DNA from: Phycisphaerales bacterium UBA5793
GTDB lineage: Bacteria > Planctomycetota > Phycisphaerae > Phycisphaerales > UBA5793
NCBI GenBank assembly: GCA_002418285.1
Contig: DIDT01000018.1
Span: 90,309-154,308 of the forward strand
Length of the DNA stretch: 64,000 nt
Reading direction: 5' to 3'
Shown here: piece after piece, positions 13,825 to 54,432 of the stretch
How the letters are laid out: every line of letters starts with the position of its first letter
Numbering within the stretch: position 1 is the stretch's first letter
Made by a program: the position numbers and the translations under genes
Notes under the pieces: model-generated
Told to the model about the DNA's origin: nothing
Databases searched by the model: none
The model's input: only the letters and a program-made list of their open reading frames with translations

Positions 13825-14325
13825 ATGGTTGGCCAGTCAGACCTGACAGTCCGGCAGTTCGAACGCAACGAGGTTGTGCTGGAGGGTGAATTCGAGGTCG
13901 CGGAAGCGCACCGCGGACAGGTCACGTTTTCCGGACGCGATGCGGCCGTGATCGATGCGCGCACACTTCGCATCACGGTGTCGGACGTGGGCGCCGGAGG
14001 CATCGGTTTTCAGTCCCCAATGTACCTCCCCCGGCAACTCCGCGGAATCGTGCGAATCTTCGACCCGACGCGCCACGGCGAAGACTCCGACGAACATGCC
14101 GTTCATTGCATCGCATTTGAACACCTCGTTCGGATTCGGCGCTGTGATCTGACAAGTCGCCTGCCGTCTTACTTCGTCGGTTCTGCCTTTGAGAATGCCG
14201 ACGAGCGGTTCGACGAGTCGCTGGCATCGCTCATGGATCGCATTTCGACCTCCATGCAGGATCGCATGATCGAGCAGCACAGTCAGCGCGGCTTCGGCCC
14301 GGATCGGGGGGGCGACCGTGTATGA
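13825..14325 (+). CDS. PilZ-domain-like protein
   Basis: 'RQFER' (RxxxR) near the N-terminus and 'VSDVGAGGIGF' (D-x-S/G-x-x-G-like). GGAGG RBS. The 3' end overlaps the gspE start by 8 nt. Confidence 0.55.
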   Translation: MVGQSDLTVRQFERNEVVLEGEFEVAEAHRGQVTFSGRDAAVIDARTLRITVSDVGAGGIGFQSPMYLPRQLRGIVRIFDPTRHGEDSDEHAVHCIAFEHLVRIRRCDLTSRLPSYFVGSAFENADERFDESLASLMDRISTSMQDRMIEQHSQRGFGPDRGGDRV

Positions 14326-16003
14326 GTCCACCGAATTCCTCGGTAAGGCGCTCGTCGAAGAGGGGTTGATTGATCGCGCACAACTTGAGCAGGCGATTTC
14401 ACTCGCCGCCGAGGCGGATTGCACCTTGGATGAAGCGATTGAGACGCTGGCGATGCTCCCTGCGTCGCGCGTGGCGCTGACCAAGGCCCAGATCTGTGAA
14501 GCGCCCTACGCCGACATCTCGCAGTATGAGATCAACTTATCAAACTGTCGGTTGATCCCCCGATCGCTGGCTCAACAGCACCTTTGTATCCCATTGTTCG
14601 TCATTGACGGTGTCATGGCGCTGGGTATCGAAGATCCGCTCAATCTGCAGGCGCTCGATCAGGTGCGCCAACTCGTTCGCCGCGAAGTCGATCCCGTCCT
14701 GTGCGAGCCCAAGGCGCTGCGGGAACTCATCGAGCGTGCCTATGCCCTGACCGACGGGAGCGAGGAGGCAATCAAGATCGATTCCCCCTCCGCAGACGGC
14801 GAAGACAGCGGTCCGATTGTCGCCGCGGTCAACACGCTGCTGCTCGACGCGATTCGAAGTGGAGCTTCGGACATCCACATCAATCCGGATCCGACGGAGA
14901 TGCATATCCGGTACCGCATCGACGGGGTGCTGCACAAACGCCAGGGACCCCCGCTGAGCATGCACGCCAAGATTGTTCAGCGCCTCAAGGTCATGGCGGG
15001 ACTCGACGTCACGCAGACCCGCCGGCCGCAGGACGGCAAGTTTCGCTTCACCCACTGTGAGCGTCGGGTGGATATCCGCCTGAGCATCCTGCCAACCATC
15101 ACGGGTGAGAATGCAGTGATTCGCATCCTCAACGCCAACAGCACGATTCTGAGCTTCACTGACCTCGGCATCGATCCGGCCACCAGTACGCAGATCGAAC
15201 AAATCCTGGCCCTGCCGTATGGCATGCTGCTCGTCACCGGCCCGACGGGCAGCGGCAAGACCACGACGCTCTACAGCGCGATCGCGCAGATCAATACCCT
15301 CGAGCTCAACATCATCACGATTGAGGATCCCGTCGAAATCCGCATGCCCCTTGTGCGACAGGTACAGGTGAATCCGGAAATCGGACTGACGTTTGCATCG
15401 ACGCTGCGGTCCGTGCTCCGTCAGGATCCTGACGTCGTGCTTGTCGGTGAGATTCGTGATGAGGAGACCGCGGCCATAGCCTTGCAGGCCTCCCTGACCG
15501 GCCACCTCGTGCTCTCCACCCTTCACACGAATGACGCAGCGGGCGCGATTGCTCGATTGACAGACTTCGGACTGCCGCCGTTCGTTATCAACTCTGCAGT
15601 GTCCGGCGTGTTGGCGCAGCGCCTGGTGCGGCGCGTGTGCGACCACTGCGCCGTCGAGGATCAACCATCGCCTCTGCAACTGGCCCAATTCAGCTTGCCC
15701 GATACCCGGGGCCTGCGACGCGGTCGAGGCTGCGCTCGATGCCTTCAGAGCGGGTATCACGGCCGCATCGGCCTGTACGAACTGCTCCGCTTTACCCCGC
15801 ATGTGCAGGAAGTCATCGCGGCCGGCGCCTCGACGGATGACATTCGCCAGGTGGCGGTCCACGAAGGGGCAAGACTCATGTGGCACGATGGGTTGGACAA
15901 GGCCCGCCTCGGACTGACGACACTCGATGAAGTCGCCCGCATGGTATTGCTCAACGAAACGACGCAAGTCATCACCGCTGCTCCACAGAGGAGGTCCGCA
16001 TGA
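14318..16003 (+). CDS. gspE: Type II secretion/type IV pilus assembly ATPase (GspE/PilB family)
   Basis: Walker A 'VTGPTGSGKTTT', Asp/His boxes, a tetracysteine 'CDHCAVED...CARCLQSGYHGR', and an N-terminal T2SSE_N/MshEN-like 'FLGKALVEEGLIDRAQLEQAI'. GTG start at 14318. Confidence 0.95.
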   Translation: MYESTEFLGKALVEEGLIDRAQLEQAISLAAEADCTLDEAIETLAMLPASRVALTKAQICEAPYADISQYEINLSNCRLIPRSLAQQHLCIPLFVIDGVMALGIEDPLNLQALDQVRQLVRREVDPVLCEPKALRELIERAYALTDGSEEAIKIDSPSADGEDSGPIVAAVNTLLLDAIRSGASDIHINPDPTEMHIRYRIDGVLHKRQGPPLSMHAKIVQRLKVMAGLDVTQTRRPQDGKFRFTHCERRVDIRLSILPTITGENAVIRILNANSTILSFTDLGIDPATSTQIEQILALPYGMLLVTGPTGSGKTTTLYSAIAQINTLELNIITIEDPVEIRMPLVRQVQVNPEIGLTFASTLRSVLRQDPDVVLVGEIRDEETAAIALQASLTGHLVLSTLHTNDAAGAIARLTDFGLPPFVINSAVSGVLAQRLVRRVCDHCAVEDQPSPLQLAQFSLPDTRGLRRGRGCARCLQSGYHGRIGLYELLRFTPHVQEVIAAGASTDDIRQVAVHEGARLMWHDGLDKARLGLTTLDEVARMVLLNETTQVITAAPQRRSA

Positions 16004-17202
16004 CTGCGCTGAGCTACGAATTCAAGGCTGTTGACTCACGCGGTCACACGCGCACCGGCATGACGGAGGCCAACTCCTGGGACGAGGCGTACCGACGAGT
16101 CGTGTCAACCGGATTGACTCCCGTTTCGGTCAAGGAACATCGCCGTCGACGCAAGGGTCGGCTGCATCGCATCACGCTTCGCGATGTGAGCCAGTTTACG
16201 TACCAACTCTCAGTGTTGATCGAGGCACGGATTCCCATTGCCGAGGGTTTGAGATCGATCGCGCGCGAGGAGTCCAACGCAGCGTTGGCGTCCATGATCG
16301 AAGACATCGCCGCCGGCATCGCAACGGGCAGTAGCGTCACAGCTGCCATGAGCGGGTATCGCGACGTGTTTGGCGATGTGTACATCGAGACCATCAACGC
16401 CGCGGAGAAGAGCGGCAATCTCGTTCGCATCCTAAGCCACCTGGCGGAGATGCTCGATCGCGAGGTCGAGACGCGAGCCAGCCTGCGGTCGGCGTTAATG
16501 TACCCCATCTGCGTCTTTGTTGCCCTGATAGCAGCAGTGACTTTTCTGATGATCTTTGTGGTGCCGCGATTCGTGACCATGTTTGAGTCACGCGGAATCG
16601 ATCTGCCGCTGGCGACGCGCGTCGTTATCGGAATGAGTCATGCCATCACGTCATACTGGTGGATCATTGCCGGTTCAGCGGTCATCGCAGTGGTCGTTCT
16701 AAGGCGAGTCGCGTCCACGGCTCATGGCAGCCTGTTGCTGGACCGATGCGTGCATCGGTTGCCGATCGTCCGCGGCGCGCTGCAGTCGGCAGCCCTGGCG
16801 CGATTCGCCCATGTATTTGGATTGTCGATCTCCAGTGGCCTCTCGATGATGGACTGCCTGGAGATGGGTGGACGCGCCGCAGGGCGACCCTTGTTGCTCC
16901 AGGACGCTCGGCGCCTGGCGACCCAGGTGTCACAGGGAGGAAGGCTTGGCGAAGTGTTGCAGGATTGCCCGTACATCTCGGGATTCGCCCGTCGGTTGAT
17001 CTCGGCCGGCGAACAATCCGCCGAGCTGCCGAACATGTGTCGCATCATTGCCCGACACTACGACCGTGAGGTGACGTACATCACACGCAATATGGCGACC
17101 CTGATTGAACCAATCGTCGTGCTTGCTCTCGCGGCGATGGTGCTCGGCCTGGCGCTGGCGATATTCCTGCCCATGTGGAACTCGATGGCTCTTCTCGGAT
17201 GA
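16000..17202 (+). CDS. gspF: Type II secretion/T4P platform protein (GspF/PilC family)
   Basis: ATGA overlap with the gspE stop. Two T2SSF-type repeats and 3 TM segments; about 400 aa. Confidence 0.9.
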   Translation: MTALSYEFKAVDSRGHTRTGMTEANSWDEAYRRVVSTGLTPVSVKEHRRRRKGRLHRITLRDVSQFTYQLSVLIEARIPIAEGLRSIAREESNAALASMIEDIAAGIATGSSVTAAMSGYRDVFGDVYIETINAAEKSGNLVRILSHLAEMLDREVETRASLRSALMYPICVFVALIAAVTFLMIFVVPRFVTMFESRGIDLPLATRVVIGMSHAITSYWWIIAGSAVIAVVVLRRVASTAHGSLLLDRCVHRLPIVRGALQSAALARFAHVFGLSISSGLSMMDCLEMGGRAAGRPLLLQDARRLATQVSQGGRLGEVLQDCPYISGFARRLISAGEQSAELPNMCRIIARHYDREVTYITRNMATLIEPIVVLALAAMVLGLALAIFLPMWNSMALLG

Positions 17203-17288
17203 CAAGTGTGGTGAGGCGCCGTTTGGACGCCGGATCAATTGAAGTACCGTGGCGGATTGGAACTGGTTTGGATCAACTGGAGGTAGTG

Positions 17289-17720
17289 ATGATGGACTCC
17301 ATTCGAATTGGACGTGGTGGACGACGGGCCTTTACGCTCATCGAGCTCATTGCCGTGATTGTCGTGCTGGCGATTCTCTCCGGCGTGGCGCTTCCGAAAT
17401 TCTTCGACTACTCGGCCAAGGCCAAGGAATCGGCGTGCCGCGGCGCGCTCGGTGGAGTGCGCAGTGCGATCGCCAACTTCTACAGCAATTCGGCGGTGGC
17501 CGGCTCGCCGGCGTACCCGAGCCTTGCGGAACTTCGCACGGCGGGCACCGTCATGCAGGAAGCCATTCCCGAGAACCCGTACAACGGCGACAGCCGCATT
17601 CGCGCCGCTTCGTGGGATGCGAACAATCCCTCCGTTTCCGGGAACCGCGGCTGGTGTTACGACGAAGCGACTGGTAAGTTCTGGCCCAATACCAACCTGT
17701 TGGGCGAGAACATCTGGTGA
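17289..17720 (+). CDS. gspG: Major pseudopilin/pilin with prepilin N-terminal methylation motif (GspG-like)
   Basis: ORF 17175..17720, start set at ATG 17289. It has 'GRRAFTLIELIAVIVVLAILSGVALPKF'. Confidence 0.85.
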   Translation: MMDSIRIGRGGRRAFTLIELIAVIVVLAILSGVALPKFFDYSAKAKESACRGALGGVRSAIANFYSNSAVAGSPAYPSLAELRTAGTVMQEAIPENPYNGDSRIRAASWDANNPSVSGNRGWCYDEATGKFWPNTNLLGENIW

Positions 17721-17723
17721 TTC

Positions 17724-18272
17724 ATGTTGCCACCCACGGGAACGAACCTCGGCCGCCGATCCGGCTTGCGGGTCGGCGGTTTTACGCTGATTGAATTGCT
17801 GGCCGTCCTGATCGTGCTGGCGATCATCAGTGCTGTCGTCGTGCCGGCGCTGACCAACCTCAGTGCAACACGGCAGACGGCGGCAGCTTCCCGCATTCTG
17901 CGAGATCTCCAACTGGCTCGGCAGCGGGCCGTGGCTCGGGGCATTCGAACTTGGGTGGTTGTCGATGCGGGCCGGCAGCAGTACGCGCTGTTCATCGAGG
18001 ACCCGACCGCTCCCGGGCGGGTCAATCGCCAGCCCATGATCGACGAAGCGACGGGTCGACCATTCGTTGTTGCACTGAATGCCGGGGAGTGGCGCGGCGC
18101 CACGATCACTGCAGTGGACCTCGCCGGCGGAAGCGAGATTGGCTTTGACAGTCGCGGAAGACCCCTCGCCGCCGATGAGTCACTTCTGACGACAGACGGC
18201 ACGATCACTCTCTCTGGCGAGCACATGCTTCGTATCACGGCACGTACGGGGATGGTCCAGCGCGCCCAATAG
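17724..18272 (+). CDS. Minor pseudopilin (GspH-like)
   Basis: It has 'GGFTLIELLAVLIVLAIISAVVVP', a GspH-like size, and sits after gspG. Confidence 0.75.
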   Translation: MLPPTGTNLGRRSGLRVGGFTLIELLAVLIVLAIISAVVVPALTNLSATRQTAAASRILRDLQLARQRAVARGIRTWVVVDAGRQQYALFIEDPTAPGRVNRQPMIDEATGRPFVVALNAGEWRGATITAVDLAGGSEIGFDSRGRPLAADESLLTTDGTITLSGEHMLRITARTGMVQRAQ

Positions 18273-18748
18273 TGCCGAGTATTGACACAGATTCCAGGTT
18301 ATGGATGGACCACATGGTATTTCGGCTTCACCACCACGGTCGCTTCGCTTTCACGCTCATCGAGACGATCGCGGCGATCGTGATTCTCGCCATGGCGGTG
18401 CCGCCGATGATGTTCGCTCTCCGACAGGCCACGGTTGATCGCATCGATCCGATTCGGTTCTCCCAGGCACGCTGGCTCGCAACCGAATGGCTCGAAGACA
18501 TCCTCGCCGACCGTCACAGCGCCACGCGCGGCTACGACTACATCATCGAGGCAAACTACCCGCATGAGACAAGCGTGGCGTCCAATCCGGCCTTTGGCCG
18601 TCAGGTGCGCATTTTCGAAACCGGCGCCGATTTGCGAACGCCGGGCGCGGGCTACAAAACGGTCACCGTCGTGCTCACCTGGGCCGACTCGAAGGGTCGG
18701 TCACGATCACTCGAAGTCGCAACGGTGCTCACGGAGTTGGAGCCGTGA
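18272..18748 (+). CDS. Minor pseudopilin (GspI-like)
   Basis: It has 'GRFAFTLIETIAAIVILAMAVPP'. The start is GTG 18272 (overlapping the previous TAG) or ATG 18305/18314. Confidence 0.7.
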   Translation: MPSIDTDSRLWMDHMVFRLHHHGRFAFTLIETIAAIVILAMAVPPMMFALRQATVDRIDPIRFSQARWLATEWLEDILADRHSATRGYDYIIEANYPHETSVASNPAFGRQVRIFETGADLRTPGAGYKTVTVVLTWADSKGRSRSLEVATVLTELEP

Positions 18749-19305
18749 GTCGCGCCGCAACCTCGATGGTTCAGCGGCGCTTTGGCTTCAGTCTGGTTGA
18801 AGTCCTTGCGGTGATTGTCATTCTGGGCCTCATCGGCGGAGTCTCATCATCGTTGATCCTGACCAATGTTGCTGTGTTTACTGAATCGAGCATTCGCATT
18901 CAGGTGCACGGTGAAGCGAGCATGACACTGGATCGAATCGTTCGCGAGATGCGCGAAATCAATCCTGATCCGAATGCTGGTCCGCCGCAGCCGTACATCA
19001 CTCACGCAAGAACCGACTCGCTGCACTGGAACGGCTCGTGCAGACTGGAGTACATGGATGGCGCGATTCTGCTTTGCACCGACGCGATGAATAGCGACCT
19101 TCTGTGCCAGGACGTCTCCGAATTCGCGCTGGACTATCTGGATAACTCCAATCGCTCGCTGCTGGTCTCCGGAGCAGTGCCCCAGGGCGACTTGTCACGG
19201 ATTCAGCGCATCGCCATTCGCTTGAGTGTGTGTCGCCAGGGCATGACGGAGTCACTCACTTCGCGAGCGTTCATCCGGGCCGCGATGACGGGAGGGATGC
19301 CGTGA
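18745..19305 (+). CDS. Minor pseudopilin (GspJ-like)
   Basis: It has 'RRFGFSLVEVLAVIVILGLIGG'. The start overlaps the previous stop. Confidence 0.7.
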   Translation: MSRAATSMVQRRFGFSLVEVLAVIVILGLIGGVSSSLILTNVAVFTESSIRIQVHGEASMTLDRIVREMREINPDPNAGPPQPYITHARTDSLHWNGSCRLEYMDGAILLCTDAMNSDLLCQDVSEFALDYLDNSNRSLLVSGAVPQGDLSRIQRIAIRLSVCRQGMTESLTSRAFIRAAMTGGMP

Positions 19306-19709
19306 AACGAGTTGCTCTGAATTACCGCCTGCTTCGGAGTCGACGTGGAAGTGTCCTGGCCGCGGTCATTGTGCTGCTTCTCATTCTCGAGATCGCCGTC
19401 GCATCACTGCTGATGAGCAGCACGAACGAGCAAAGTGTGGGCGTCGACCGACTCGACACGGTGCGGGCGTTCTACGCGGCAGAAGCGGGAACCCAAATGG
19501 CCCTGCGCGAAATGATGCTCGGCCGCGACGAGGATGGCGATGGTGTGGTGGGTGGTGTTTCCGACGACGGCGATGCGACAACCAACCCGCGATTCGGAAA
19601 TGCGTCTGTGCACGTTATGGTAACCATCGTTGCGGGAGCGATGGTTGTGACGAGTGATGGATCTTGCGGAAAGGCGATGCGCATTGTGCAGGCAACGGTA
19701 TCCGACTGA
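19302..19709 (+). CDS. Minor pilin-like protein (GspK/PilX_N-like)
   Basis: ORF 19230..19709. GTG 19302 forms a GTGA overlap with the previous stop. It has a hydrophobic N-terminal helix 'GSVLAAVIVLLLILEIAVASLL' and a 'RAFYAAEAGTQMAL' PilX_N-like segment. Confidence 0.55.
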   Translation: MKRVALNYRLLRSRRGSVLAAVIVLLLILEIAVASLLMSSTNEQSVGVDRLDTVRAFYAAEAGTQMALREMMLGRDEDGDGVVGGVSDDGDATTNPRFGNASVHVMVTIVAGAMVVTSDGSCGKAMRIVQATVSD

Positions 19710-19757
19710 TCCTCGGAGCGAGATCAGCGAAGGGTCAGACGACTGGAGGGATCGGAC

Positions 19758-21215
19758 ATGAATGGTCGCCGAGCATTCATCACGGCACTCGCGGGACTGA
19801 TGTGCGGTGGGCCGACGTCCCGGATTCTTGCCGACGGCAGGACCTACTACGTCCGTCAAGGTGGCAGCGACCTGAGTAGCGGCCTGTCGCCCGACTCGGC
19901 CCTCCGGTCGATTCAGCGCGCAGTAGCGCTGGCGACTGGAGCAGGGAACTCGATCATCATCGGTCCCGGCGTGTACTACGAGCAGGTTCTCATAGGCAGC
20001 GGTTCGGGCTTGACCGCAAGTAGCGGAACTGAAGAGGCACCCAATACCATCATCGCTGATCTGACCGGCGCCGAGACAGGTGATGCCGCCGCACCAGTTG
20101 TCCTTGAAGGTGATGGAGTGCGCGAGTGGGGGCTGAGGATCAGCCAGCGTGATCACTGGGCCGTCAGCGGTCTGACCTTTCGCGGCCAGTCGCAGCAAGC
20201 GATCTTCATCAGTAGCGCCACGGGAATTGACGTGGAGTCCTGCACCATTCACGCGCCGTCTCGGGCCGGGATCGAAGCGAATGACTGTGCCGAAATCGTA
20301 ATCGGAGGCAACACCTTCACGCGCGATACGGATTCCGGCTCGTGCATTGTCATCGATGCTGAGAGTCGAATTGGCCGTGCTTCGCTCGACGAACAGCACG
20401 ATGGCGATGATGATCACGGGGAGCATCGAGATAGTGAAACAGAGAATCGCCGGGTCGATCGAGAGCGCAGCCACGCATGGGGTCGCTACAAGCGAAACCG
20501 ACCGGCTCCGGGTGAGACCATCGTGATTGAATCCAATCGCTTCGCCGTGCTCGGTGGGCTCTACCTGGCGTCGGACTACACCCGTGAGGAGCATGGGCGG
20601 CGCGGTCACGGCGGCGAGCGTATTAACGGGATCGACGTCAACGCACACGGCGACGGAGCGACGGTCCACATTCTCAACAACATAGGCAGCGATTGCTGCA
20701 ACGGGATCAACTTGCGATTGGAGGGCGATCACGCCACGGGGATAGTTGCCAACAATTCGCTGGCCGGTTGTTGGATTGGCATCCGCGTTTCTGGGCGGAG
20801 CGATCGGGTGCTGCTCAGCGACAACATCGTGACCCATTCGAGGTTTGCAATTGCCGCTGCGGGCCGCGGATCAAGAATGACCATCTCCGGCCTGTTGACC
20901 TTCGACATCGGCGGCGCCACCTTGCTTGGGGATGGCCCGAACTCGATCGTGGGCCACGTCGAAAACGTCGATCCGCGCTGGGTTGCGCCCGGCGCGGGCA
21001 ACTTCGCTCCTGACGCCGACTCACCTGCAATCGACGCGGGACGGGGCGCCGCCGGGCTGACAACCGACATCCGCGGCCTCTCTCGGCCATACGACGGCGA
21101 TGGCAACGGCGACGCCCATCCCGATCTGGGAGCGTACGAATACCACCCCGTAGAGGATGACGACCGCCGGTTGCGGCTGGTTGAATGGCGCGAGGTTGGG
21201 GTGCAGCGGGAGTGA
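19758..21215 (+). CDS. Right-handed parallel beta-helix repeat protein with a Tat-like signal peptide
   Basis: 'MNGRRAFITALAGL' is a twin-arginine signal. 'YYVRQGGSDLSSGLSPDSALRSIQRAV' is a DUF1565/pectate-lyase-fold N-cap. It has repeated 'I..N.F' beta-helix turns and a C-terminal 'DIRGLSRPYDGDGNGDAHPDLGAYEY'. Confidence 0.75.
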   Translation: MNGRRAFITALAGLMCGGPTSRILADGRTYYVRQGGSDLSSGLSPDSALRSIQRAVALATGAGNSIIIGPGVYYEQVLIGSGSGLTASSGTEEAPNTIIADLTGAETGDAAAPVVLEGDGVREWGLRISQRDHWAVSGLTFRGQSQQAIFISSATGIDVESCTIHAPSRAGIEANDCAEIVIGGNTFTRDTDSGSCIVIDAESRIGRASLDEQHDGDDDHGEHRDSETENRRVDRERSHAWGRYKRNRPAPGETIVIESNRFAVLGGLYLASDYTREEHGRRGHGGERINGIDVNAHGDGATVHILNNIGSDCCNGINLRLEGDHATGIVANNSLAGCWIGIRVSGRSDRVLLSDNIVTHSRFAIAAAGRGSRMTISGLLTFDIGGATLLGDGPNSIVGHVENVDPRWVAPGAGNFAPDADSPAIDAGRGAAGLTTDIRGLSRPYDGDGNGDAHPDLGAYEYHPVEDDDRRLRLVEWREVGVQRE

Positions 21216-21360
21216 TTGCGGATTACCGGTCCTGAGACAGTGTTCCTGCCGGACGAAGTCGCCCTTCGCGTGTGCCGATATGGAACTGGCTTGACCGCCC
21301 AAAACCGGTCAGGCGGCGTTACTGGATCCCGCGCGGCTGAACAGCAGATCCGGATGGATC

Positions 21361-23058
21361 GTGGAGGCAGATCGGGTGCTTCGGCTCTCCGGCCAACCGA
21401 TCATCTTCGTTATCGGCAGCGAACTGATCGAGATCTCGGTCGGTCGTGGTCGTCGCGTCGCGTGCATCCGCATGGAAGTGGATCTGCCCGATGATTCACG
21501 CGAGTGGAGTGCCGCCGTTCGTGCGCTGGCGGTGCAGTTGCGTCCGAGGCTGGCCGAGCATGGCCTCGTTCGGTCCCCCACGATCGTTCTCTACGAGAGC
21601 CCGAGCAGTTCATCGCAACTGACCAGTCTCGCCACGACCAACGACAAACAGGCGCTAGCGGCCGCGCGGCTTGCCGCGCTGGGGGCGATCGGCGCCTCTG
21701 ACGAATCTGCCATCGCCGATGCGTGTGCCGTTGGTTGTGACGCCACCGGCGATCCCCCGCGTCACCATCTCGTGGCCGCCGCCGATCAGGCAGAAGTCCT
21801 TCGGGCGGTAGCCGATCTGGTTGAGTCGGTCGGACTGATCACCGAGCGGATCGTTCCGATTGACGCCGTCGCCATGACAGACATTGTCACCCCGGCGCTT
21901 TCGCACAAGGGGCCGACACAGGGTTGGTTGCACGTCGGAGTGGAGCAGTCCTGGTTGGTTGTGGTCGGAGAGGGGCATCTGCGTCTCTTTCGACCGATCC
22001 GGTTTGGTATCGAGCATCTGACCGATGTGCTGACGCGGCCGATCTGCATCACTGGAGCGCGGGCAGAACACTGCCTGACGCAGGACCGCGCCGCCTCGCT
22101 TCTCGCCGAGCACGGAATTCCCAGCCGCGAGCGCCTGCTTGATGAAGAGTCCGGCCTCTACGGTCAGCATGTGCTGCCGTTGCTCCAACCAGTGCTTCAA
22201 CGCGTGATTGTCGAACTGAAGCAGTCGCTTCGATTCGGACTTTCTGAGTCTCATCGACGGGAGTTCTCGATGCGGCTCTGCGGCGAAGGCGCGGCCCTGC
22301 CGGGTTTGGCGACGATTCTCGGCGACGCCATCGAGTGTCGAGTCGAATCACAGCCCGTCGAGGTGACCCCGATAAGGCTGTCGTGCGGGCTTGAGGCGTC
22401 GGTCTGTCATCGCCTCGTGGCCTCCTGTCCAAACCTGCTGCCGCAGCGCACGATCGCGGCACAGATGGCCCATCGATTCAATCGCAGCATCTGGGTGGGA
22501 CTGGCTGCCGGGCTGGCGCTGCTCGCACTCGATGCCCTTCGTCTGGACGGCCTGATCGCAGAGGAGAAGAGCCGCCTCATCACAGTCAGCAATCAGTTGG
22601 ACGATGCCCAGGCACGCCTGCAGCAGCGCGAGCAGGCGCTCTCGAAGGCTGCTGCATTGCAGCGGCTGCAGAACACTTATGTGGCGGCGACAGGCTTCTC
22701 GCCCGACTACTCCGCCGTACTGCGTGAGGTGGCGCTCGCGACGCCGATGTCCATTCGACTCATTCGCATGGAGAGCGTCAACTCCCCGATGGAGGCAATC
22801 ATGGGTGACGTGGCCCCGCCGGCTACCCTTTCTCTTGACGCGTACGCGATCGGGACCGACGCCGATGAAAAGATCGCGTCCTTTGTCGGGCGCCTTCGTG
22901 CGAGTGCCCTCGTGGAATCAATCGCTCTCGGATCGACAGTGCGCAGCGAAATCGATGGACAGGCCGCCCGGAGATTCGATATCCGGATTGAACTGTGCCC
23001 TGTAGTGGTCCAGAGTTCCGGATCGCTCGTTGACGCGGAATCGAGGAGCCACCAATGA
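21361..23058 (+). CDS. GspL-like / PilM-PilN fusion assembly protein
   Basis: The N-terminal roughly 350 aa has an actin-like PilM pattern ('AEVLRAVADLVESVGLITERIVPIDAVAM'). Then 'NLLPQRTIAAQMAHRFNRSIWVGLAAGLALLAL' gives the PilN signature plus a TM, followed by a periplasmic domain. GTG start; the exact start is uncertain. Confidence 0.65.
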   Translation: MEADRVLRLSGQPIIFVIGSELIEISVGRGRRVACIRMEVDLPDDSREWSAAVRALAVQLRPRLAEHGLVRSPTIVLYESPSSSSQLTSLATTNDKQALAAARLAALGAIGASDESAIADACAVGCDATGDPPRHHLVAAADQAEVLRAVADLVESVGLITERIVPIDAVAMTDIVTPALSHKGPTQGWLHVGVEQSWLVVVGEGHLRLFRPIRFGIEHLTDVLTRPICITGARAEHCLTQDRAASLLAEHGIPSRERLLDEESGLYGQHVLPLLQPVLQRVIVELKQSLRFGLSESHRREFSMRLCGEGAALPGLATILGDAIECRVESQPVEVTPIRLSCGLEASVCHRLVASCPNLLPQRTIAAQMAHRFNRSIWVGLAAGLALLALDALRLDGLIAEEKSRLITVSNQLDDAQARLQQREQALSKAAALQRLQNTYVAATGFSPDYSAVLREVALATPMSIRLIRMESVNSPMEAIMGDVAPPATLSLDAYAIGTDADEKIASFVGRLRASALVESIALGSTVRSEIDGQAARRFDIRIELCPVVVQSSGSLVDAESRSHQ

Positions 23059-23663
23059 TTGGCGCCAGCCCGTTTCGCCGGGTGCTTCCTTCCAGCGCGG
23101 TGGTGATCGCCACACTCCTGGCGTGCTTTGTGCATTTCACTCTGCCGCGTATGGACCGACTCCGCGCGGCGCGGGCGGAGTTCGAGGCTCTTTGCCAGCG
23201 AGCTGATGATGTGGAAATCCCTTCGACTCCTGTCACAGGTCCCGACGATCAGCAGGTCGAGCATCTCGTCAACCACGTCGAGAAGCTGAACGCTGCGGTA
23301 GCAGAGCCGACGGGTGTCTACGACCAACTTGTGGAAATGGCTCGCGCGACGGAACTGCAAGTGGAGTCCATCACCCCATCTCGAGCGGAGGCGGCAGGCG
23401 GTCGACTCGATTTGTTTGGCTGGACGATGGTCGCCGTGGGATCGTTTCAGGAGGTCATCAACTTCGTTGATGCGCTCAGCGCGCAAGAGGGGATACATCG
23501 CGTCGCGTCCATTCGTCTCGCGCCCGCGATGGGAGCAACGGCTCCGTCCGATCTCACCTTTACTCTCAGCGTGGAGTACGCTCAAGTGGTCGTGCCGAAC
23601 GTGCTCAAGGTACACGCGGTCCCCGTCCCGCCGCCCGAGTTCAATCGGGAGACTCTGCCATGA
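23055..23663 (+). CDS. GspM/PilO-like assembly protein
   Basis: ATGA overlap with the previous stop. N-terminal TM, then a coiled coil ('RMDRLRAARAEFEAL'), then an alpha/beta domain. The position after the L-like gene supports the call. Confidence 0.55.
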   Translation: MIGASPFRRVLPSSAVVIATLLACFVHFTLPRMDRLRAARAEFEALCQRADDVEIPSTPVTGPDDQQVEHLVNHVEKLNAAVAEPTGVYDQLVEMARATELQVESITPSRAEAAGGRLDLFGWTMVAVGSFQEVINFVDALSAQEGIHRVASIRLAPAMGATAPSDLTFTLSVEYAQVVVPNVLKVHAVPVPPPEFNRETLP

Positions 23664-24202
23664 AACTGACAACCGTGTCGGGCCGTCACTTCGTGGGACT
23701 GGTCTCCCTTGTGGCACCGCTGCTTGTGTTTGCCATCGCAAAGATCGTCGGACTCGGGCCGCTGATGACGCATGCCCAATCGGAACCCAACACGAACGAC
23801 TCTGATGTCGAAGCGCCCGCCCGGCAAGTCGATCCACCCACCCTGGAGGCCCGATTGCAGCCGCCCGCAGAATCGACCGCCAGCCTGGCCCGGACACAGG
23901 AACTTCGCGTGCAGCCTGCGGGCGAATTCGTCAGCCCGTTCTATCAGGCCATCGCGATTGAAGAACCACCCGAGCAGCAGGTCGCGCCCGTCGAAACACC
24001 GCCGCCGCCGGCGCCGACGTTTGCACTCAGTGGCGTCATGAACAGTCGCCCGCCGATCGCAGTGATTGACGGCGATGTGCATCGCGTGGGGGATGACCTT
24101 GCCAACGGGTGGCGCATCCAATCAATCGATGCAAAGACCCTTGCCGTGACTCTCCGCCACGCGGATGGTCGGGAATATCGCTTGACGACCGGCAAACCCT
24201 GA
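23660..24202 (+). CDS. GspC/PilP-like protein
   Basis: ATGA overlap with the previous stop. N-terminal TM, a Pro-rich linker, and a C-terminal beta domain 'LSGVMNSRPPIAVIDGDVHRVGDDLANGWRIQSIDAKTLAVTL'. Confidence 0.5.
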   Translation: MKLTTVSGRHFVGLVSLVAPLLVFAIAKIVGLGPLMTHAQSEPNTNDSDVEAPARQVDPPTLEARLQPPAESTASLARTQELRVQPAGEFVSPFYQAIAIEEPPEQQVAPVETPPPPAPTFALSGVMNSRPPIAVIDGDVHRVGDDLANGWRIQSIDAKTLAVTLRHADGREYRLTTGKP

Positions 24203-24216
24203 TCGTCCAACTGTGG

Positions 24217-25731
24217 TCATGCGGGCCGTTGCGGCCGATCGGGATCAGACCACTCCAGATGGAAGAACTTGCCACGAGGTTGATCGACTCGTTCGTACGT
24301 GTGTGAGCCGAAGTAGTCTCGCTGCGCCTGCAGCAGGTTTGCCGGCAACCGCTTCGATCGATAGCTGTCGAAGTAAGCCAGCGCTGACATGAACGCGGGG
24401 CAGGGCACTCCCGCCGTCGCGGCGAGTGACACCACCTGGCGCCATGCCTGTTGACCCGCATTGATATGCCGTTTGAAGGTTCGATCGAGCAGGAGGTTGG
24501 GCAACTCGGCATTCTCTTCATACGCCGAGGCAATGCGCTGGAGAAACCGTGCTCGGATAATGCACCCGCCGCGCCAGATGCGCGAGATGGTTGCAAAGTC
24601 GAGTGACCATTTGTATTCCTTCTGGGCTTCGCGCATCAGTTGGAAGCCTTGCGCGTAGGCGCAAATCTTCGAGCAGTAGAGCGCCTGGCGGATGGCGTCG
24701 ATGAGTTCCGCTCGCGGGCCAATCGTACGTTTGGATAGGACGGCGGGTCCTTTGAGCTTCTTTGATGCGCCGACACGCTCATCTTTGATTGCGCTGATGA
24801 TGCGTGCAAACACGGCCTCGGTGATCGTGGCAGCAGGAATGCCCATGTCCAGCGCATTCACGCTCGTCCACTTTCCCGTACCCTTCTGGCCTGCAGCGTC
24901 GAGCACCGAATCAACAAACCACGCGTTCTTCTTCTGTGGATCCTTCTGGTGAAGGATGTCCGCGGTGATCTCGATGAGGTAGCTGTCGAGATCGCCCTTG
25001 TTCCACTTCGCAAACACATCGCCGATTTCCGGCGGTGACATCTCCAGCAGTGTGCTCAACAGCCAGTACGCCTCGCAAATGAGTTGCATATCAGCATATT
25101 CGATGCCGTTGTGAACCATCTTGACGTAATGCCCCGCGCCATCCGGGCCGATGTACGCCGCGCACGTTTCGCCACCTTTGACGGGCTTGCCGGGCCGAGC
25201 GCCTTCGAGCGGTCGGCCGGTCTTTGGGTTGATCTTCGCCGCGATCGCTTCCCAGATCGGCTTGAGCCGCTTCCAGCTCTTCGCATCCCCACCCGCCATG
25301 AGCGATGGGCCAAATCTTGCACCCTCAGAGCCGCCGCTTACTCCCGAGCCGAAGAACTTCAGTCGGTCGGCGTAATCGCGCTCCCGGCGGATCGTGTCTG
25401 TCCACAGCGAGTTGCCGGCGTCGACAATCAGGTCGTCCTTTGCCACACCGGCGCTGATGAGTTGATCCGTCACGCTGTCAACGGGCTTGCCCGCAGGAAC
25501 GAGCAGCACCGCAATGCGCGGTGGCTTGAGTGCAGCGACGAATTCGCCATAGGACTTGGATCCAGTCAGACCACCGGGGGTGGAAGGGTTGGTCCTGAGG
25601 AACTCATCGGTGACATCGCCGCTGCGGTTGTAGACGGCGACGTGAAAGCCGTGGTCTGCCATATTCAGCACCAGGTTCTGTCCCATGGTGCCCAGCCCAA
25701 CCAGTCCGATGTCCGCTTTGCCATTGCTCAT
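24217..25731 (-). CDS. gnd: 6-phosphogluconate dehydrogenase, decarboxylating
   Basis: [29 protein letters not shown]... (Rossmann), plus '[21 protein letters not shown]' and '[13 protein letters not shown]'. Start set at ATG 25731. Confidence 0.95.
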
Positions 25732-25813
25732 GATCGATGCCTCCACTCGGGCCAAGAAACTGCGCCGGAAGGGGAGTCTAGTCGATGAGACAGCGCGAGC
25801 GACCGGTAGACGG

Positions 25814-28477
25814 TTATGGTTTGGTCGACTCGGCCGGTGAGCTCGATGACTCGGTCGTCTTGGGAATGCGTCGCGCCCATCGGCTGATCAGAGGCCGGTA
25901 GCGCTGGGGGATCGCCTCTTCATTGAGAGCACGCTCGATCGCCTGCGCCGCTTCACGCAACTGCGTGATGTCCATGGGCTGACGGTCGACAGCGCCTTCC
26001 GGGCGCGCCTGGTCGGGGCCGTACATCTCGGCAATGACGCGATCATTGCCCGGCTTGTCCTGTGTGGAGAGGTTCACATCTTCTGTGTCATACTCAAACA
26101 GTTTCGGATTCTGCACCGCCTGTGTCGGCAGCGTGCGGTCGAGGAGTGATCCGGGAGACCCGTCGGGTCCGCTGGTCCCTCCGGCGGTATTCTCGCGCGC
26201 CCTCTCCGCCGCCCATTGCTCGAGTTCCCGACGTTCTTCAGGCGACATCTGCTCCAGCAATTCCTTGGCGGCGTCGCGCATCTCCTGTGAGATTTCCTGG
26301 TTGGGAGCCGTGCCGCCGTCCTTTGACTTGTCAATCTGATCCAGCGTCTCTCGCAATCGCTTGACCTTGTCGCTGACGCCTTGTGGCCCATCGGCTGTGC
26401 GACCGGAGGGATCAATCCTGGTGTCGCCATTCGGCGTGGGACCCGGACCGGGTGCCTGGCCATCGTCAGAAGACGCGCCGGGAGTCGGTGCCGCGCCTGG
26501 CTCAGTCATGCCCTGACCGGGTTCAGGCTGCGGGGGCTGCGAACCAATGCCCGGCTCAGGTCGCGGCGTCGTGCCTTCCGTGGCCGTGGGCTCGCCTTGC
26601 TCTCCAGGCTGCGGCGTTCCCTCAGACTGGGGCTCTCCACCTTTACCGGGCGGCGGTTCGGTGGCGGGATCTCTGGACACATTTCCGCCCGGCTCAACCT
26701 TTGGCGCTTCGGTCGGCTTCTCGTCCGGCTGGGGCTGCGTCCCCTCGACAGGCTTGGCCGTTTCGCCCGGGGCGGGTGTCGCGTTGGGCTTGGTGCCGTC
26801 TCCCGGTTTGGTAGTTTCCGTCGGTGTGCCGGCCTCACCAGGCTTGGCAGTCTCATGCGGCGTGCCTGGCTGGATTCCTTCCTTGCGAGAATCGGGCTGT
26901 TCCGCGCTCTGACCCTGCTGGTCGCCGGTCGGCGGCTTGTCGCTCGCACCGCGCTCGTCGCCGTCCTGTCCCGCGGGTTTGGCGTTCTCCTCGCCCTGCT
27001 TTCCCGAGCCGTCGGTGCTGCGATCGTCTCCTCCCGGCGATTGCTCCGGTGGAGTGGCATTCGATGGATCGCGCTGAGAATCCGGTTGCGTCTTTGGTCC
27101 GCTCTCCGGTTCAGTCTTCGGCTGCTCGTGGGTCTGGGGTGGTGGAGGTGGCTGATCGATAGTGTCAGCGAGCTCCGACACTCGCCTGGCCGTCTCCTCG
27201 AGTTGCTCGCGCGACTTCTCTTCAGCCGCGCGCTCTGCGAGCTCACGCTGCACCTGCTCGGCCAACTGTTGCGCATCGATCGGATCTTGCCCCTGATCCT
27301 GCAACTCGCGGCGAATCGCGTCGAGCGATGGTATCTCCTGCCGCCACCTCTCGATTTGCTCAGGCGTCAAGCCCAGATCTTCAAGTGACGGGTCTCCGGA
27401 AGTGGCAGATTCAGCCGACTCTGGCGGCTGTGCCGACTTGGAAATCTGCTCCGCTGTCTGGCGCAGGGAGTCGGCCAGAGCCTTCTGCTCCTCGAGCGGC
27501 GCTGCTTTCAATCGTTCTTCAAGTGACTCGAGCCACTTGGTCGCCGCCGCGATGTCGCCGTCCTTCAGCGAGTTGGCAAACTCGTCAGCCGCGCCCGGCG
27601 TAGTGGGAGGCTCAAGATCAGCCAGTCGTTCTGCAGCGCGCTGCTGTCCTTCCCGCTCAATCTGTGCTTCGCGATCGAGACGATCCGCCAGCTCGATCGC
27701 TTCACGCGCCGCCGAGGACAACTCGGCATCACTCGTCCTGGACGCCGTCGACTTTGACCCGGCAGGGGCGTCGCCTGAAGAGGTGTCGAGTTGCTTGGCC
27801 AATCGATCAAGCGTGGCCAGCGCCTGCTGTTTGGCGGCGGCATTGGCCTGCTCCGTCGCCTCTGGATCAGTCGCCGCGTCATCTCGGAGTTGTGCGGCTC
27901 GCTGGCGCAGCGACTCAGCCGCCCGCTGCCGCGCATCCAGCGCGGCGATCTGATCGGCCGTCTGTTCGGGTCGGGCAAAGACGTTGTGTGGTTCGACGAG
28001 CAAGAGCAGCAAAACGCATCCAATCGCGCCAAGCAACGCCGTGCCCCACGACATGGGCCACCTGATGCGGGCCGCTCCGCGCGGGTCGATGCGAGCCGCC
28101 ACTTGCTGCGCGTCTTCATGCACCCATCGCGTCATTGGATTGTCATGATCGGCCGATGACAGCGACTGCACGGAAATCGCCGTGCCGAGTCGATCCTTGA
28201 GCTGCAGGCCGTCGTCGAGCAGCACGGCCGCATCGAGTTCGGCGGCCCGCCGATGCCAGGCGATGGCGCACGCGACGGGAGCGCCGCTGAGCGAGATCAG
28301 TGCGATCATCCACGCGGGCAGCCCCAGTGCCGTGAACCGATCGACGAGCGTCAGCACAAGTGCCGCCGCAACGGAAATGGTCAACCACAGTCCGCCAAGC
28401 CGCACCGCATCGGCAATGAGCAGCCGCCGGCGCGTTCGCGCAATCAATCGCTCAAGATGTGATGCCGGTCGGCTCAT
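25814..28477 (-). CDS. Membrane protein with a long coiled-coil and acidic/Pro-Thr-rich low-complexity region (DUF4175-like by recollection)
   Basis: Start ATG 28477 ([19 protein letters not shown]). Two N-terminal TM helices, an Ala/Glu/Gln-rich coiled coil, about 250 aa of P/T/E/G/K low complexity, and a C-terminal '[12 protein letters not shown]'. Confidence 0.6.
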
Positions 28478-28557
28478 GCTTCTTCCATCGACCACGCGGC
28501 CGCCGTCAAATCAGGCGGTTCTTCCGATTATACAGGAGGAGCGCCGTGCCGGGCTGT

Positions 28558-29418: not shown

Positions 29419-29544
29419 GGCGCCAATGTGCTGGCGAGTGGATTGCTCGTGGCATCCGTGGTCTCGCCAGCAGAACTCTGACAGGGGGAGAGTTCGCTCG
29501 TGGCGGCCCCCCTGATCCTTTCGCGCAATGAGGAGGAGTAGATC

Positions 29545-30492
29545 ATGTCGAAGATCCTGCGTAATGGCGTTGCATTGGGCATCGCCGCGATGGCTCTGGC
29601 TTCCGTGGCGAATGCTCAGGTGCTCCGCCCCTCGACGCCGCATGCGGCGTTCAACTACATTCCATTTGGAGGAACCGGACAGGTTTGCACCATGCATCAG
29701 GTGTTCGACCGTTCGCTCTGGAGCGCTCCGATGGAGATCTCTGCCCTCGGCTTTTCAGTGTTTGATACAAACAATGGACAGCGGTATGACAGCGACGTCG
29801 CCATTCGTCTGGGCTACACCGAGAAGGTCCCCGGCCAGAACCCGCCGACTGGTCTTGACGGCGTACTTGCGAACAATCCGAGTGGATCGATGAACGAGGT
29901 CTTCAGCGGTCGGGTCTCTGAAGTGCTCGTTGCCGGCGGCACCGAAGCCTTCACATTCGTGATCCGCTTCGACAGGCCGTGGTGCTATGACCCCGCGCAG
30001 GGCAATCTGCTGGTCGAGATCAAGTCGTCCTGGGTCTCCGGCGCTGACCTCGCCGTCGGTCGAACGTCCGGCAGCGCTGAAGCATCTCGCGCGTACAACT
30101 CGACGCGCTTCGGCGACCTAGCCTCACCCACCACCGCCACCCGCATGGACTTCTACGAGGACGGTTGCAGCGGCGGCGGTCCTTCGCTCCGCGTCACGGG
30201 TGAGTGTCCCGGTCGCGTGACCGTCGCGTGGGGCGGCGCAACACCGAATCGTCCCATGGCGATCGTGTACGCGAATAACACTGGCAGCTTCGTCGTCCCC
30301 GGCGGACCTTGCGCCGGAACGCAACTCGGTCTCGGCACCAGCGGGATTCAGGTCGCCTTTCAGGGCGGAACCGGCTCGGGCTCCGGCCAGGTCAACAGCA
30401 ACGTGGGAACCGGTGTGTGCGGGCACTACATCCAGATGGTCGTAGTCTCCGGCAGCCCATGCGAGACGAGCAACGTCGTACAGTTGCCGTAA
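29545..30492 (+). CDS. Secreted protein, tandem family paralog 1: 'QVF' N-domain plus C-terminal 4-Cys module ending SNVVQLP
   Basis: Signal peptide ...ASVANA|Q and RBS GAGGAGG. It shares 'YDPAQGNLLVEI', 'ASRAYNS..FG' and 'ATRMDF' with paralogs 2-3. The C-terminal module is at nt 30175-30489. Confidence 0.85.
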   Translation: MSKILRNGVALGIAAMALASVANAQVLRPSTPHAAFNYIPFGGTGQVCTMHQVFDRSLWSAPMEISALGFSVFDTNNGQRYDSDVAIRLGYTEKVPGQNPPTGLDGVLANNPSGSMNEVFSGRVSEVLVAGGTEAFTFVIRFDRPWCYDPAQGNLLVEIKSSWVSGADLAVGRTSGSAEASRAYNSTRFGDLASPTTATRMDFYEDGCSGGGPSLRVTGECPGRVTVAWGGATPNRPMAIVYANNTGSFVVPGGPCAGTQLGLGTSGIQVAFQGGTGSGSGQVNSNVGTGVCGHYIQMVVVSGSPCETSNVVQLP

Positions 30493-30570: not shown

Positions 30571-30751
30571 GCATGGCATCTCGCGATCCTCAGGCGAGGC
30601 ATTGGCAGGGAAACGACCGTGATGTGCCACCAAGTTCGCGATTACGGCGCGACTCCGTCGGACCAGCATGTAGCATGCACAAGGCGAACGCGGCTGGTTC
30701 GCGCTGAGTGCACGCCCCTGCGATTCGCGTCAATTCCGTGGAGGTTGCATC

Positions 30752-31675
30752 ATGTCCCGCACCAGTCATTTGAGCGTGGCCGTCGCAGTCGCGGCAGCGG
30801 CATTCACGTCGTCGGCTCTCGCGCAGGTCTATCCGAATTTCGCCCATGAGCACTACAACAGCATGCCCTTCTGGACGGACGAAATCACATACCAGCAGGT
30901 CTTCGCCGCAGTGCAGTTTGGCTCTGCTCCCATCGAGATTCACTCAGTGGCCTTTGCGCCCTCGCCAGCCCATAACGGCGAAGAATTCCTGCTTGACCAG
31001 GTGCGAATTCATCTCGGCTACACCGACAAACAACCCGGCGAACTCTCGCCCGATCTCTCCGCCAACCCGCGCGGTTCCATGACTGAAGTCTGCAATGAGT
31101 TCAACTGCGAAGGTGTTATCGAGTCCGGCGGCGGCGACCACTTCTCGCTTCGCTTCGTCTTCACGACGTCGTTCTGCTATGACCCGGCCAACGGCAACCT
31201 GCTCGTCGAGATCCGGGCCGTGAATACGACGCTCATCGGCATTGCAACTTCGTGCTGTACCGGCATGCCGGCGGCATCACGTGCGTGGAATTCGTTCATG
31301 TTCGGCAACGGCGCCGACACCGTCGCGACGCGCATGGAGTTTCTCATCACCTCATGCGGCGGACCGATGCTGACGCTCGACGGCCACTGCCCAGGTCAGA
31401 TCGACGTCGCGTGGAGCAATGCGGCGCCCGGCGAACAGATGGGCATCGTCTATGCCCATTCGACCGGTTCATTCATGGTCCCCGGTGGACCCTGCGCCGG
31501 GACGCGACTGGGCCTCGGCGCCAATCGACTGCAATTGATCCGCACCGTAGACACCGGCTCTGGTCAGGGCGGCATCAGCGGCAACGCCGGAAGCGGCGCC
31601 TGTGGCGGATACCTTCAACTCGTCGTCGCATCCGGCAATCCCTGCACCGCCAGTAACGTGGCTCAGTTGCCCTGA
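30752..31675 (+). CDS. Secreted protein, tandem family paralog 2: 'YQQVF' N-domain plus C-terminal 4-Cys module ending SNVAQLP
   Basis: Signal peptide ...SSALA|Q. It has 'YQQVFAAVQFGSAPIEIHSVAF', 'YDPANGNLLVEI' and 'ASRAWNSFMFG'. The module is at nt 31358-31672. Confidence 0.85.
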   Translation: MSRTSHLSVAVAVAAAAFTSSALAQVYPNFAHEHYNSMPFWTDEITYQQVFAAVQFGSAPIEIHSVAFAPSPAHNGEEFLLDQVRIHLGYTDKQPGELSPDLSANPRGSMTEVCNEFNCEGVIESGGGDHFSLRFVFTTSFCYDPANGNLLVEIRAVNTTLIGIATSCCTGMPAASRAWNSFMFGNGADTVATRMEFLITSCGGPMLTLDGHCPGQIDVAWSNAAPGEQMGIVYAHSTGSFMVPGGPCAGTRLGLGANRLQLIRTVDTGSGQGGISGNAGSGACGGYLQLVVASGNPCTASNVAQLP

Positions 31676-38155: not shown

Positions 38156-38332
38156 CGCTTTGCACCCTTTGCGCGGCGCAGCCCACCGGAAAAACCTGGC
38201 CGCACCACCACCATCGGCCACAATTGGCCATCACTTGTTTGTTTACCATCTATATAGGCTCAACCCCGCGGACGACCAGATAATAACTGGCGCTGCCGAG
38301 GCTGCGGGCAGGAAATCAACCACTCAGGCCGA

Positions 38333-42324: not shown

Positions 42325-42504
42325 GGAAGATCATAACGCGCCGCCGCCCCTTGCTCCGGTCGGGCTTCGATATGCAGTACCGCTCCTTCCGGACCGATTC
42401 GAGCAATTTTCTGCAAGGTCCGGCCACGCCATGCGACCATGATTGACAGAGCCGCTTGCGACCCCAACGGTCCGCGCTACCCGTTGAATTGAGAGGAAAC
42501 CAAA

Positions 42505-44490: not shown

Positions 44491-44806
44491 TGGGGGCCGC
44501 AGAAGTGGTGAGTCCCGGCCGAGCGCTTCTGCTCGACTTGGGGGTCGGGCCTTTGGAGCCCAGCGAGCCGGTGCTTCCGGGGGCCCGATTCCCGGGCAAG
44601 TGGGACAGAATATACGCCAATTTAACAGACCTCGCGCGAATAACCCGCTCGGCAGAGGGGTTTGCTATGGGTTCACTGGATGATGGTCAGGAGGTCTCAT
44701 CGCTGTGCCACAGACCGCCGGGGAGCTCGGCGCGGCCAGTGGACATTGAACATTCGTTCGATCGTGTTTTTCCTTTCTTCACAGGCGAACAAGAGGATGA
44801 CTTCAC

Positions 44807-47936: not shown

Positions 47937-48013
47937 CGCGACCTTCAGACGCTCTGTTTCAAGGCCGAATCCCCCTTTCCGAGCCTCCAGCCTCCCAAAT
48001 GGTTGGCGAATTT

Positions 48014-48042
48014 TTGCATTTTCTGCATATTTGACGTATGTT
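48014..48042 (+). promoter_or_regulatory. Candidate sigma70-like promoter in an AT-rich patch
   Basis: TTGCAT, 17-nt spacer, TATGTT, about 95 nt upstream of ATG 48138. It is followed by a perfect 8-bp hairpin CTTGCCGG-catc-CCGGCAAG at 48069-48088 in the putative leader. Confidence 0.3.
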
Positions 48043-54382: not shown

Positions 54383-54432
54383 TTGATGCGTCACCTCGTT
54401 CAGAACCCAGCGAAGGCGGAGGAGAAGATCTC

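Follow-up and report, generated by a model that had tools for sequence, protein, structure and literature searches.

The contig DIDT01000018.1 of Phycisphaerales bacterium UBA5793, of which a stretch of 64,000 nucleotides was analysed (hereafter the window), carries on its plus strand a run of twelve genes spanning 13825-24202, whose products resemble components of type II secretion systems (T2SS) and type IV pili. The genes follow one another in the order PilZ-E-F-G-H-I-J-K-beta-helix-L-M-C and are referred to by these letters, with BH denoting the beta-helix gene (Table 1). A preliminary description of the window had reported twelve co-directional genes and called them a T2SS/type IV pilus-like operon; the label is right, and the genes are present both among the open reading frames (ORFs) and in independent public gene calls on the contig, which place the start of L at 21376 (560 aa), that of I at 18305 and that of G at 17289/17292.

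Five junctions of the operon overlap. The PilZ and E genes share 8 nt (14318-14325), and four-base motifs are common to E and F (ATGA at 16000), to J and K (GTGA at 19302), to L and M (ATGA at 23055) and to M and C (ATGA at 23660). All of these overlaps had been listed in the preliminary description, whose claim of tight translational coupling holds for them but not for the whole operon, since gaps of ~87, ~48 and ~160 nt separate F from G, K from BH and BH from L, and those junctions are therefore not coupled. The operon ends, as had also been described, against the convergent gene gnd (24217-25755, minus strand), which begins 14 nt beyond the C stop codon, and two CoA-transferase subunit genes lie upstream. 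No riboswitch or other Rfam element was found at 13-25 kb in an Rfam scan, and promoter and terminator scans of the operon region scored shuffled sequence equally well.

Table 1. Genes of the operon and proteins sharing a C-terminal module (window coordinates)
Feature	Coordinates	Strand	Remarks
PilZ-domain protein (Z), 166 aa	13825..14325	+	family-level Pfam PilZ, motifs; overlaps ATPase gene by 8 nt
Extension-type AAA+ ATPase, PilB/GspE family (E)	14318..16003	+	N-terminal MshEN; CxxC...CxxC motif
Inner-membrane platform protein, PilC/GspF, polytopic (F)	16000..17202	+	Pfam T2SSF 1.2e-46, two repeats
Major (pseudo)pilin candidate (G), 143 aa	17289..17720	+	AFTLIE prepilin motif; N_methyl 3e-6
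Minor pilin with GspH/FimT-type domain (H)	17724..18272	+	Pfam GspH 4e-7, N_methyl
Minor pilin, 'I' position	18305..18748	+	prepilin motif FAFTLIE
Minor pilin, 'J' position	18745..19305	+	N_methyl 2e-5
PilX_N-like non-canonical pilin, 'K' position, 135 aa	19302..19709	+	without Glu5; GTGA-coupled to J
Exported right-handed beta-helix protein (BH)	19758..21215	+	choice-of-anchor Q domain; accessory, part of lineage only
PilM-PilN fusion (L), 560 aa	21376..23058	+	cytoplasmic actin-like domain, transmembrane segment plus long helix, periplasmic ferredoxin-like domain
PilO homologue (M), bitopic	23055..23663	+	family profile against M. xanthus PilO 3jc8_O
PilP/GspC-HR/GspB-fold protein (C)	23660..24202	+	transmembrane helix, Pro-rich linker, C-terminal small beta domain
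C-terminal-module protein	29542-30492	+	
C-terminal-module protein	30674-31675	+	
C-terminal-module protein	42493-44490	+	
C-terminal-module protein	44801-46582	+	
C-terminal-module protein	47937-51146	+	
C-terminal-module protein	54280-56064	+	

Two components of canonical machines are missing. Pfam models, run against every large ORF of the 64-kb window, matched no secretin and no Peptidase_A24 gene, and phmmer searches with E. coli GspD and HofQ for the former and E. coli GspO for the latter agreed, bearing out the earlier statement that both are absent from the operon and from the whole 64 kb. Nor was an A24 peptidase found in the 77.7 kb of contig examined in all (the window plus 13.7 kb; contig positions 35.6-113.4 kb).

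The arrangement is not confined to this contig. The order Z-E-F-G-H-I-J-K-(BH)-L-M-C is found in ~23 of 32 species-level Phycisphaerales loci from GTDB and in many of 80 metagenome loci, the related genomes being metagenome-assembled genomes (MAGs) labelled Phycisphaerales, Phycisphaerae or Planctomycetota. The comparison of synteny proposed with the preliminary description finds the operon order recurring in more than 100 related loci, and order and overlaps are kept from 75% to ~23% identity of the L protein, with L-M-C standing separate from the remaining operon genes in some genomes. The operon is a conserved, order-wide system of the Phycisphaerales, marine-type Planctomycetes, and no paper describing it was found in the literature searches made. 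In three related loci (L087, L088 and L123; loci are cited by such numbers) PilZ-E-F-G is followed directly by L, with no match to the minor pilins H-K. The operon is also present, with syntenic flanks and 48% L identity, in a MAG named 'Vicinamibacteraceae bacterium isolate PLA1' (L014, WYBR01000013.1), whose Acidobacteriota label is therefore probably wrong.

At the head of the operon, the E protein combines Pfam T2SSE (3e-128) and MshEN (1.7e-19) domains, its Walker A (P-loop) and CxxC motifs are conserved, and the solved structures closest to it are those of Thermus PilF and of Geobacter/Myxococcus PilB. The gene that overlaps it, which is the first of the operon in relatives as well, was recognised as PilZ-like in the preliminary description, and this assignment is correct at the family level: the window copy by itself falls below Pfam detection, and Pfam PilZ matches 15 of 24 orthologues with a best E of 1.7e-9. 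In the family alignment R10xxxR14 is invariant and D54-x-S/G-x-G-G is conserved, so that the RxxxR and DxSxxG motifs through which PF07238 proteins bind cyclic di-GMP (c-di-GMP) are both kept. A PilZ family profile search of the PDB gave no match. A gene for an EAL-GGDEF-CBS protein of c-di-GMP turnover lies 12 kb from the operon (window 36353-38230, minus strand) and is syntenic in L007; its product may be an input source for the operon's PilZ protein.

The five genes that follow F encode prepilin-like proteins. G, the first pilin gene behind F in all relatives, gives weak N-terminal matches to PilA and GspG, and G, H, I and J all possess N_methyl prepilin motifs with Glu5. H matches TIGR01708 at 1.6e-9, under the cutoff, and the match of K to PilX_N, at 0.037 in the window copy, is found in four orthologues at up to 6e-4. 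The preliminary description had named these genes G-like to K-like, of which the five prepilin-like genes and the GspH domain stand, but no similarity of the I and J proteins to GspI or GspJ was found by Pfam on orthologues or by family-profile searches of the PDB. Because the I, J and K family profiles match solved pilins solely via the N-terminal helix, their letters are positional labels.

The last three genes encode the components that would align such a machine across the periplasm. L matches TIGR01175 PilM (1.4e-8) and Pfam PilN, and its family profile matches Thermus PilM 2ych. Its AlphaFold2 model (pLDDT 82; structure predictions took a 6-sequence alignment as input) consists of an actin-like domain, a long helix and a ferredoxin-like domain, and its top Foldseek matches are PilM structures (5eox, 2ych and 3jc8_Ma, E ~1e-15). 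Among 1.84 billion cluster representatives, 514 belong to the PilM-PilN fusion family at E<=1e-30. The M family profile matches 3jc8_O over its full length (E 4.4e-13), and Pfam T2SSM is detected in 3 of 18 orthologues. For C, Pfam T2SSB is found in 9 orthologues and Y4YQ_C in 12. Its C-terminal domain is modelled at pLDDT >90, and Foldseek matches it to PilP (2lc4 and 3jc8_P, probability 0.96), to GspC-HR from the GspC-GspD complex (3oss_C, probability 1.0, TM-score 0.75, root-mean-square deviation 2.3 A) and to GspB (4wfw, probability 0.99); residues W151, I156, D157, G144 and G170 are near-invariant in 31 orthologues. The three proteins correspond to the PilM/PilN/PilO/PilP alignment complex of type IVa pili, with PilM and PilN fused, and not to a GspL/GspM/GspC platform, as L is a PilM fold plus PilN, M is PilO-like and C has neither a PDZ domain nor a coiled coil. 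To our knowledge, binding of the secretin N0 domain is the sole role established for the PilP/GspC-HR/GspB fold. Such binding by GspC-HR and by GspB is described in two reports (PMC3169554, PMC9239104).

The slot adjacent to K is variable and resembles a site for accessory proteins or adhesins, the position after J/K being occupied in several lineages by beta-helix or other large exported proteins. BH, which is found in 9 of ~30 GTDB loci, matches Beta_helix (4e-11), NosD and choice_anch_Q (1e-10), and Pel9A-like_beta_helix is listed in its precomputed Pfam annotation; its sequence has no match in the PDB. BH orthologues have an N-terminal signal peptide in common. Export by the Tat pathway was considered and rejected, as the RR motif is not conserved in orthologues, and therefore just a signal peptide is claimed. 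In L021 (8055-9782) the K orthologue is fused to PA14 (1e-14) and DUF7305. In L030 (6646-8202 and 8626-9834) an additional ORF of 519 aa, in which W-x-GS-W motifs recur, separates J from K, and a beta-helix gene is present too. This variability suggests a tip-associated accessory that binds or degrades glycans, and the likeliest place for BH in such a role is the filament tip, which would display or deliver it. A more speculative extension, which can be put forward only tentatively, is that the operon encodes a c-di-GMP-gated 'glycan-fishing' pilus, whose tip slot would accept exchangeable beta-helix or PA14 modules.

On this evidence the operon probably supplies those parts of a type IV filament machine that lie in the inner membrane and the periplasm, the machine being characteristic of the Phycisphaerales. 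It works like a hybrid, in which type IVa-pilus-like components are laid out in the single-operon E-F-G-H-I-J-K-L-M order of type II secretion, with no linked retraction ATPase: no PilT was found in the window (phmmer), the contig extension or the operon flanks, and the window has a single GspE/PilB-type ATPase. Features held in common with the type IVa pili of M. xanthus, P. aeruginosa and T. thermophilus are an ATPase nearest PilF/PilB, the PilM fold, PilO homology and the PilP fold, as well as a PilX_N-like pilin that is followed, in the PilY1 position, by a large non-pilin exported protein. Unlike in those pili, PilM and PilN are one polypeptide, all genes form one operon, no pilQ stands behind the pilP-like gene, neither PilT nor PilU is encoded close by, a beta-helix takes the place of a beta-propeller in the accessory protein, and the ATPase scores under the PilB equivalog cutoff. 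With the T2SS (GspC-M, as in the E. coli K-12 gsp operon) the operon shares its gene order, five prepilin-type proteins, a GspH domain, an HR-fold protein, tightly coupled genes and, as in GspL, an L protein that joins actin-like cytoplasmic and periplasmic ferredoxin-like domains. It departs from the T2SS in having no gspD or gspO, in a C-like gene that is last and not first and whose product has no PDZ domain or coiled coil, in the full PilM-type fold of L and the closer kinship of M to PilO, in a K protein of 135 aa as compared to ~330 in GspK, and in I and J proteins unrecognisable as GspI and GspJ. The operon does not amount to a canonical T2SS (no GspD, no GspL/M/C-type platform) and corresponds only in part to a type IVa pilus (no PilQ or PilT in cis). 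Its most fitting classification is as a variant, specific to this lineage, of the type IV filament superfamily.

The 5' end of the operon also has counterparts in known systems. Vibrio MshE, with its MshEN domain, and the Xanthomonas PilZ-PilB(-FimX) assembly are c-di-GMP-controlled filament ATPases, and the present operon resembles them in coupling a PilZ gene to the gene for an MshEN-domain ATPase, with the EAL-GGDEF-CBS gene not far off. Unlike in Xanthomonas PilZ, which has lost them, RxxxR and DxSxxG are kept here, and c-di-GMP binding is accordingly a prediction from sequence; unlike in Vibrio MshE, the MshEN c-di-GMP motif looks degenerate.

A dedicated T2SS is the strongest competing explanation, though a rather unlikely one. 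Under it, a periplasmic pseudopilus would push folded signal-peptide cargo through a distal secretin, the candidate cargo being BH and/or neighbouring proteins that share a C-terminal module of ~100 aa. The gsp-like gene order, the one major and four minor short pilins, the GspH domain, the lack of PilT in cis and the T2SSM and T2SSB matches in orthologues all agree with this explanation, as do the signal peptides on BH and the module proteins and the occurrence of six module proteins within 32 kb of the operon. These six secreted-looking, plus-strand proteins have FG-GAP, Kelch, BNR or other N-terminal parts, and the Cys-containing module that they share has no Pfam or NCBIfam match. The platform proteins, however, are PilM-, PilN- and PilO-like and not GspL- and GspM-like, there is no protein of GspK size, no GspC with a PDZ domain or coiled coil and no GspD, and most operons are without BH. 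Outside the window the module was found only in the closest relatives (L004, L007, L011, L012 and L014, operon flanks examined), as against the order-wide operon, and the two show no co-distribution in what is a weak test confined to flanks.

Elsewhere among the neighbours, the minus-strand gene at window 25814-28510 encodes a protein of ~890 aa with N-terminal transmembrane segments and a long low-complexity region rich in Pro, Thr, Glu and Gln, for which there is no family match. The region has a strong AT-skew anomaly (-0.345), and the synteny of gnd, this gene and tatD is conserved in relatives.

For the type IV filament machine favoured here, the missing peptidase presents little difficulty. 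Among the relatives, the prepilin peptidase is demonstrably a stand-alone, lineage-wide gene, and its absence from the operon is therefore ordinary. In L023 (2369-4885) and L097 (7049-8656) a gene with A24_N_bact (3e-34) and Peptidase_A24 domains lies directly upstream of L-M-C, and in L045 (10001-12373) a PilD-OmpA pair lies amid housekeeping genes. The ~500-aa peptidase has 3245 homologues, with identities of 50% or more for the best 120, and many of them carry the name 'prepilin peptidase [Phycisphaerales bacterium]'. These Phycisphaerales peptidases are unusually long, their A24_N and A24 parts being set apart by a large insertion, and a gene for an OmpA-family peptidoglycan-binding protein consistently follows them (L023, L097 and L045). 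In Legionella the lsp T2SS loci are scattered, and the P. aeruginosa Xcp system uses PilD; the present system is like both in that the peptidase is apart from the machine operon and components are dispersed, and differs in its secretin, which is inferred here, while in those systems the gene has been identified and is linked to one partner gene or more. In type IV filament (TFF) systems generally, peptidases are often shared between systems and type IV pilus genes are normally spread over several loci (PMC6668835).

The secretin is the harder case. Six reference secretins of four classes served as queries (three T2SS secretins from gamma-, alpha- and epsilon-proteobacteria, PilQ, HofQ and the Tad protein CpaC); they detect one another at E<=1e-13, and the 1.6 Mb of sequence from loci with the operon contains no match to any of them at E<=1. 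Neither GspD, as of a T2SS, nor PilQ, as of a type IVa pilus, was found in cis at any locus examined. One candidate, at 8357-9853 of L066, gave a profile E of 0.05 through weak likeness to the junction between N-domain and secretin domain and ends in LLVLIPQRM; it was rejected, as Pfam Secretin does not match it even at E<=1, and it has no homologues in other loci. A conserved neighbour of another family as an alternative pore was rejected too, clustering of flanking genes having returned just rpsB-tsf, CoA-transferase, gnd and a TPR protein. A gene for a large TPR-repeat protein lies just downstream of the PilP-like gene in L074 (3352-5754) and ~6 other metagenome loci; TPR lipoproteins act as secretin pilotins in type IVa pili. 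Literature searches found nothing specific on secretins or T2SS of Phycisphaerae or Planctomycetes. P. limnophila, a member of the Planctomycetia, has three PilQ-like genes (PMC11958385). The Denise 2019 supplements mention Planctomycetes in legends only, including that of the TFF secretin tree.

The preliminary description had left the choice between distal components and a machine without a classical secretin. Of these the first is favoured, with reasonable confidence, by the stand-alone peptidase, the HR fold and a second ATPase, and beyond the consistent non-linkage nothing positive was found for the secretin-free machine. The genes for the outer-membrane pore and the peptidase most likely lie at other sites in the genome, which makes their omission less strange than first thought. 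Four considerations lead us to infer a distal secretin. The HR/PilP fold, with its secretin-binding role, is retained and conserved. Filament genes are dispersed on the contig, where a DUF1559-type planctomycete pseudopilin gene and, after it, the gene for a second GspE-like ATPase (561 aa, MshEN domain) form a pair ~43 kb downstream of the operon (L133 18150-20792, ~66.3-68.9 kb in window numbering and so outside the window). This ATPase shares 49% identity with E. coli GspE and 38% with E, and no F-like gene follows within 550 bp. The Planctomycetia have PilQ-like genes (PMC11958385). Finally, judging from gene content, the envelope looks to be of the ordinary diderm type, Kdo transferase and MlaD genes adjoining pilD in L045.

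A PilMNOP-type machine that truly lacks a secretin is improbable by comparison. It would confine its filament to the enlarged planctomycete periplasm, for example to haul captured polysaccharide, or would use a new, non-secretin conduit through the outer membrane, and the partner of the HR/PilP domain would be something other than a secretin. The want of a linked secretin in more than 100 loci and 1.6 Mb and of any report of a Phycisphaerae secretin in the literature searches speaks for such a machine, and the PilD-OmpA pairing and the TPR protein after C in some loci could hint at other envelope partners. The proposal depends, however, on non-linkage within loci and their flanks, which yield no recurrent outer-membrane candidate, and it is opposed by the conservation of a fold known solely for binding secretin N0, by the PilQ-like genes of other Planctomycetota and the place of Planctomycetes in the TFF secretin tree legend, and by the Kdo transferase and MlaD genes of what seem ordinary diderms. 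An incomplete or decaying remnant without function, which the local lack of core outer-membrane and processing components might suggest, is effectively refuted, and hence very improbable, given twelve intact ORFs, order and overlaps conserved across the order from 75% to ~23% identity, conserved PilZ RxxxR/DxSxxG, prepilin Glu5, and ATPase Walker A and CxxC motifs, and an order-wide distribution by which the operon is not a remnant.

The type IV filament machine with distal components would work as follows. The PilZ protein, the intact motifs of which were observed, would sense c-di-GMP and gate the translationally coupled PilB/GspE-type ATPase, and the ATPase would power the PilC/GspF platform, on which the major pilin G would polymerise. 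The minor pilins H, I, J and K would form the priming complex that starts polymerisation. The PilM-PilN fusion, PilO and the PilP-like protein, assigned by homology, would form the alignment complex, and the HR/PilP domain of C would dock the machine onto a secretin from another locus. Prepilins would be processed by the stand-alone ~500-aa peptidase, whose gene was seen in relatives. Apart from those observed elements, the scheme draws on knowledge of the families concerned.

Several findings weigh against this interpretation. No secretin was seen in the window, in 13.7 kb more of the contig or in the ~1.6 Mb surrounding the related operons, more than 100 in number, and a secretin that is consistently unlinked is unusual, because canonical systems place pilQ after pilP and gspD after gspC. 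E and F score under all NCBIfam equivalog cutoffs, with E at 542 bits for PilB TIGR02538 (cutoff 676) and 519 bits for GspE TIGR02533 (cutoff 630) and F at 261 bits for GspF TIGR02120 (cutoff 424). The 24-residue MshEN motif of E, in which the first Arg and the last Gln are replaced, reaches 20.5 bits for NF053729 against a cutoff of 38. I, J and K are not assignable by sequence to GspI/J/K or PilV/W/X, and the role of BH is a guess from gene position and one fusion.

If a secretin is found elsewhere, the operon becomes an ordinary case of dispersed genes; if complete genomes prove to be without one, the operon would represent the first case in a diderm of a type IV filament machine lacking a secretin, and a clue to polymer transport across the planctomycete envelope. 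More than 100 Phycisphaerales loci centre on this operon as their main recognisable filament machine. Its combination of type IVa-pilus parts with T2SS gene order bears on the evolution of secretion systems from pili, and the coupling of its PilZ gene to the ATPase gene makes it a clean candidate for c-di-GMP control.

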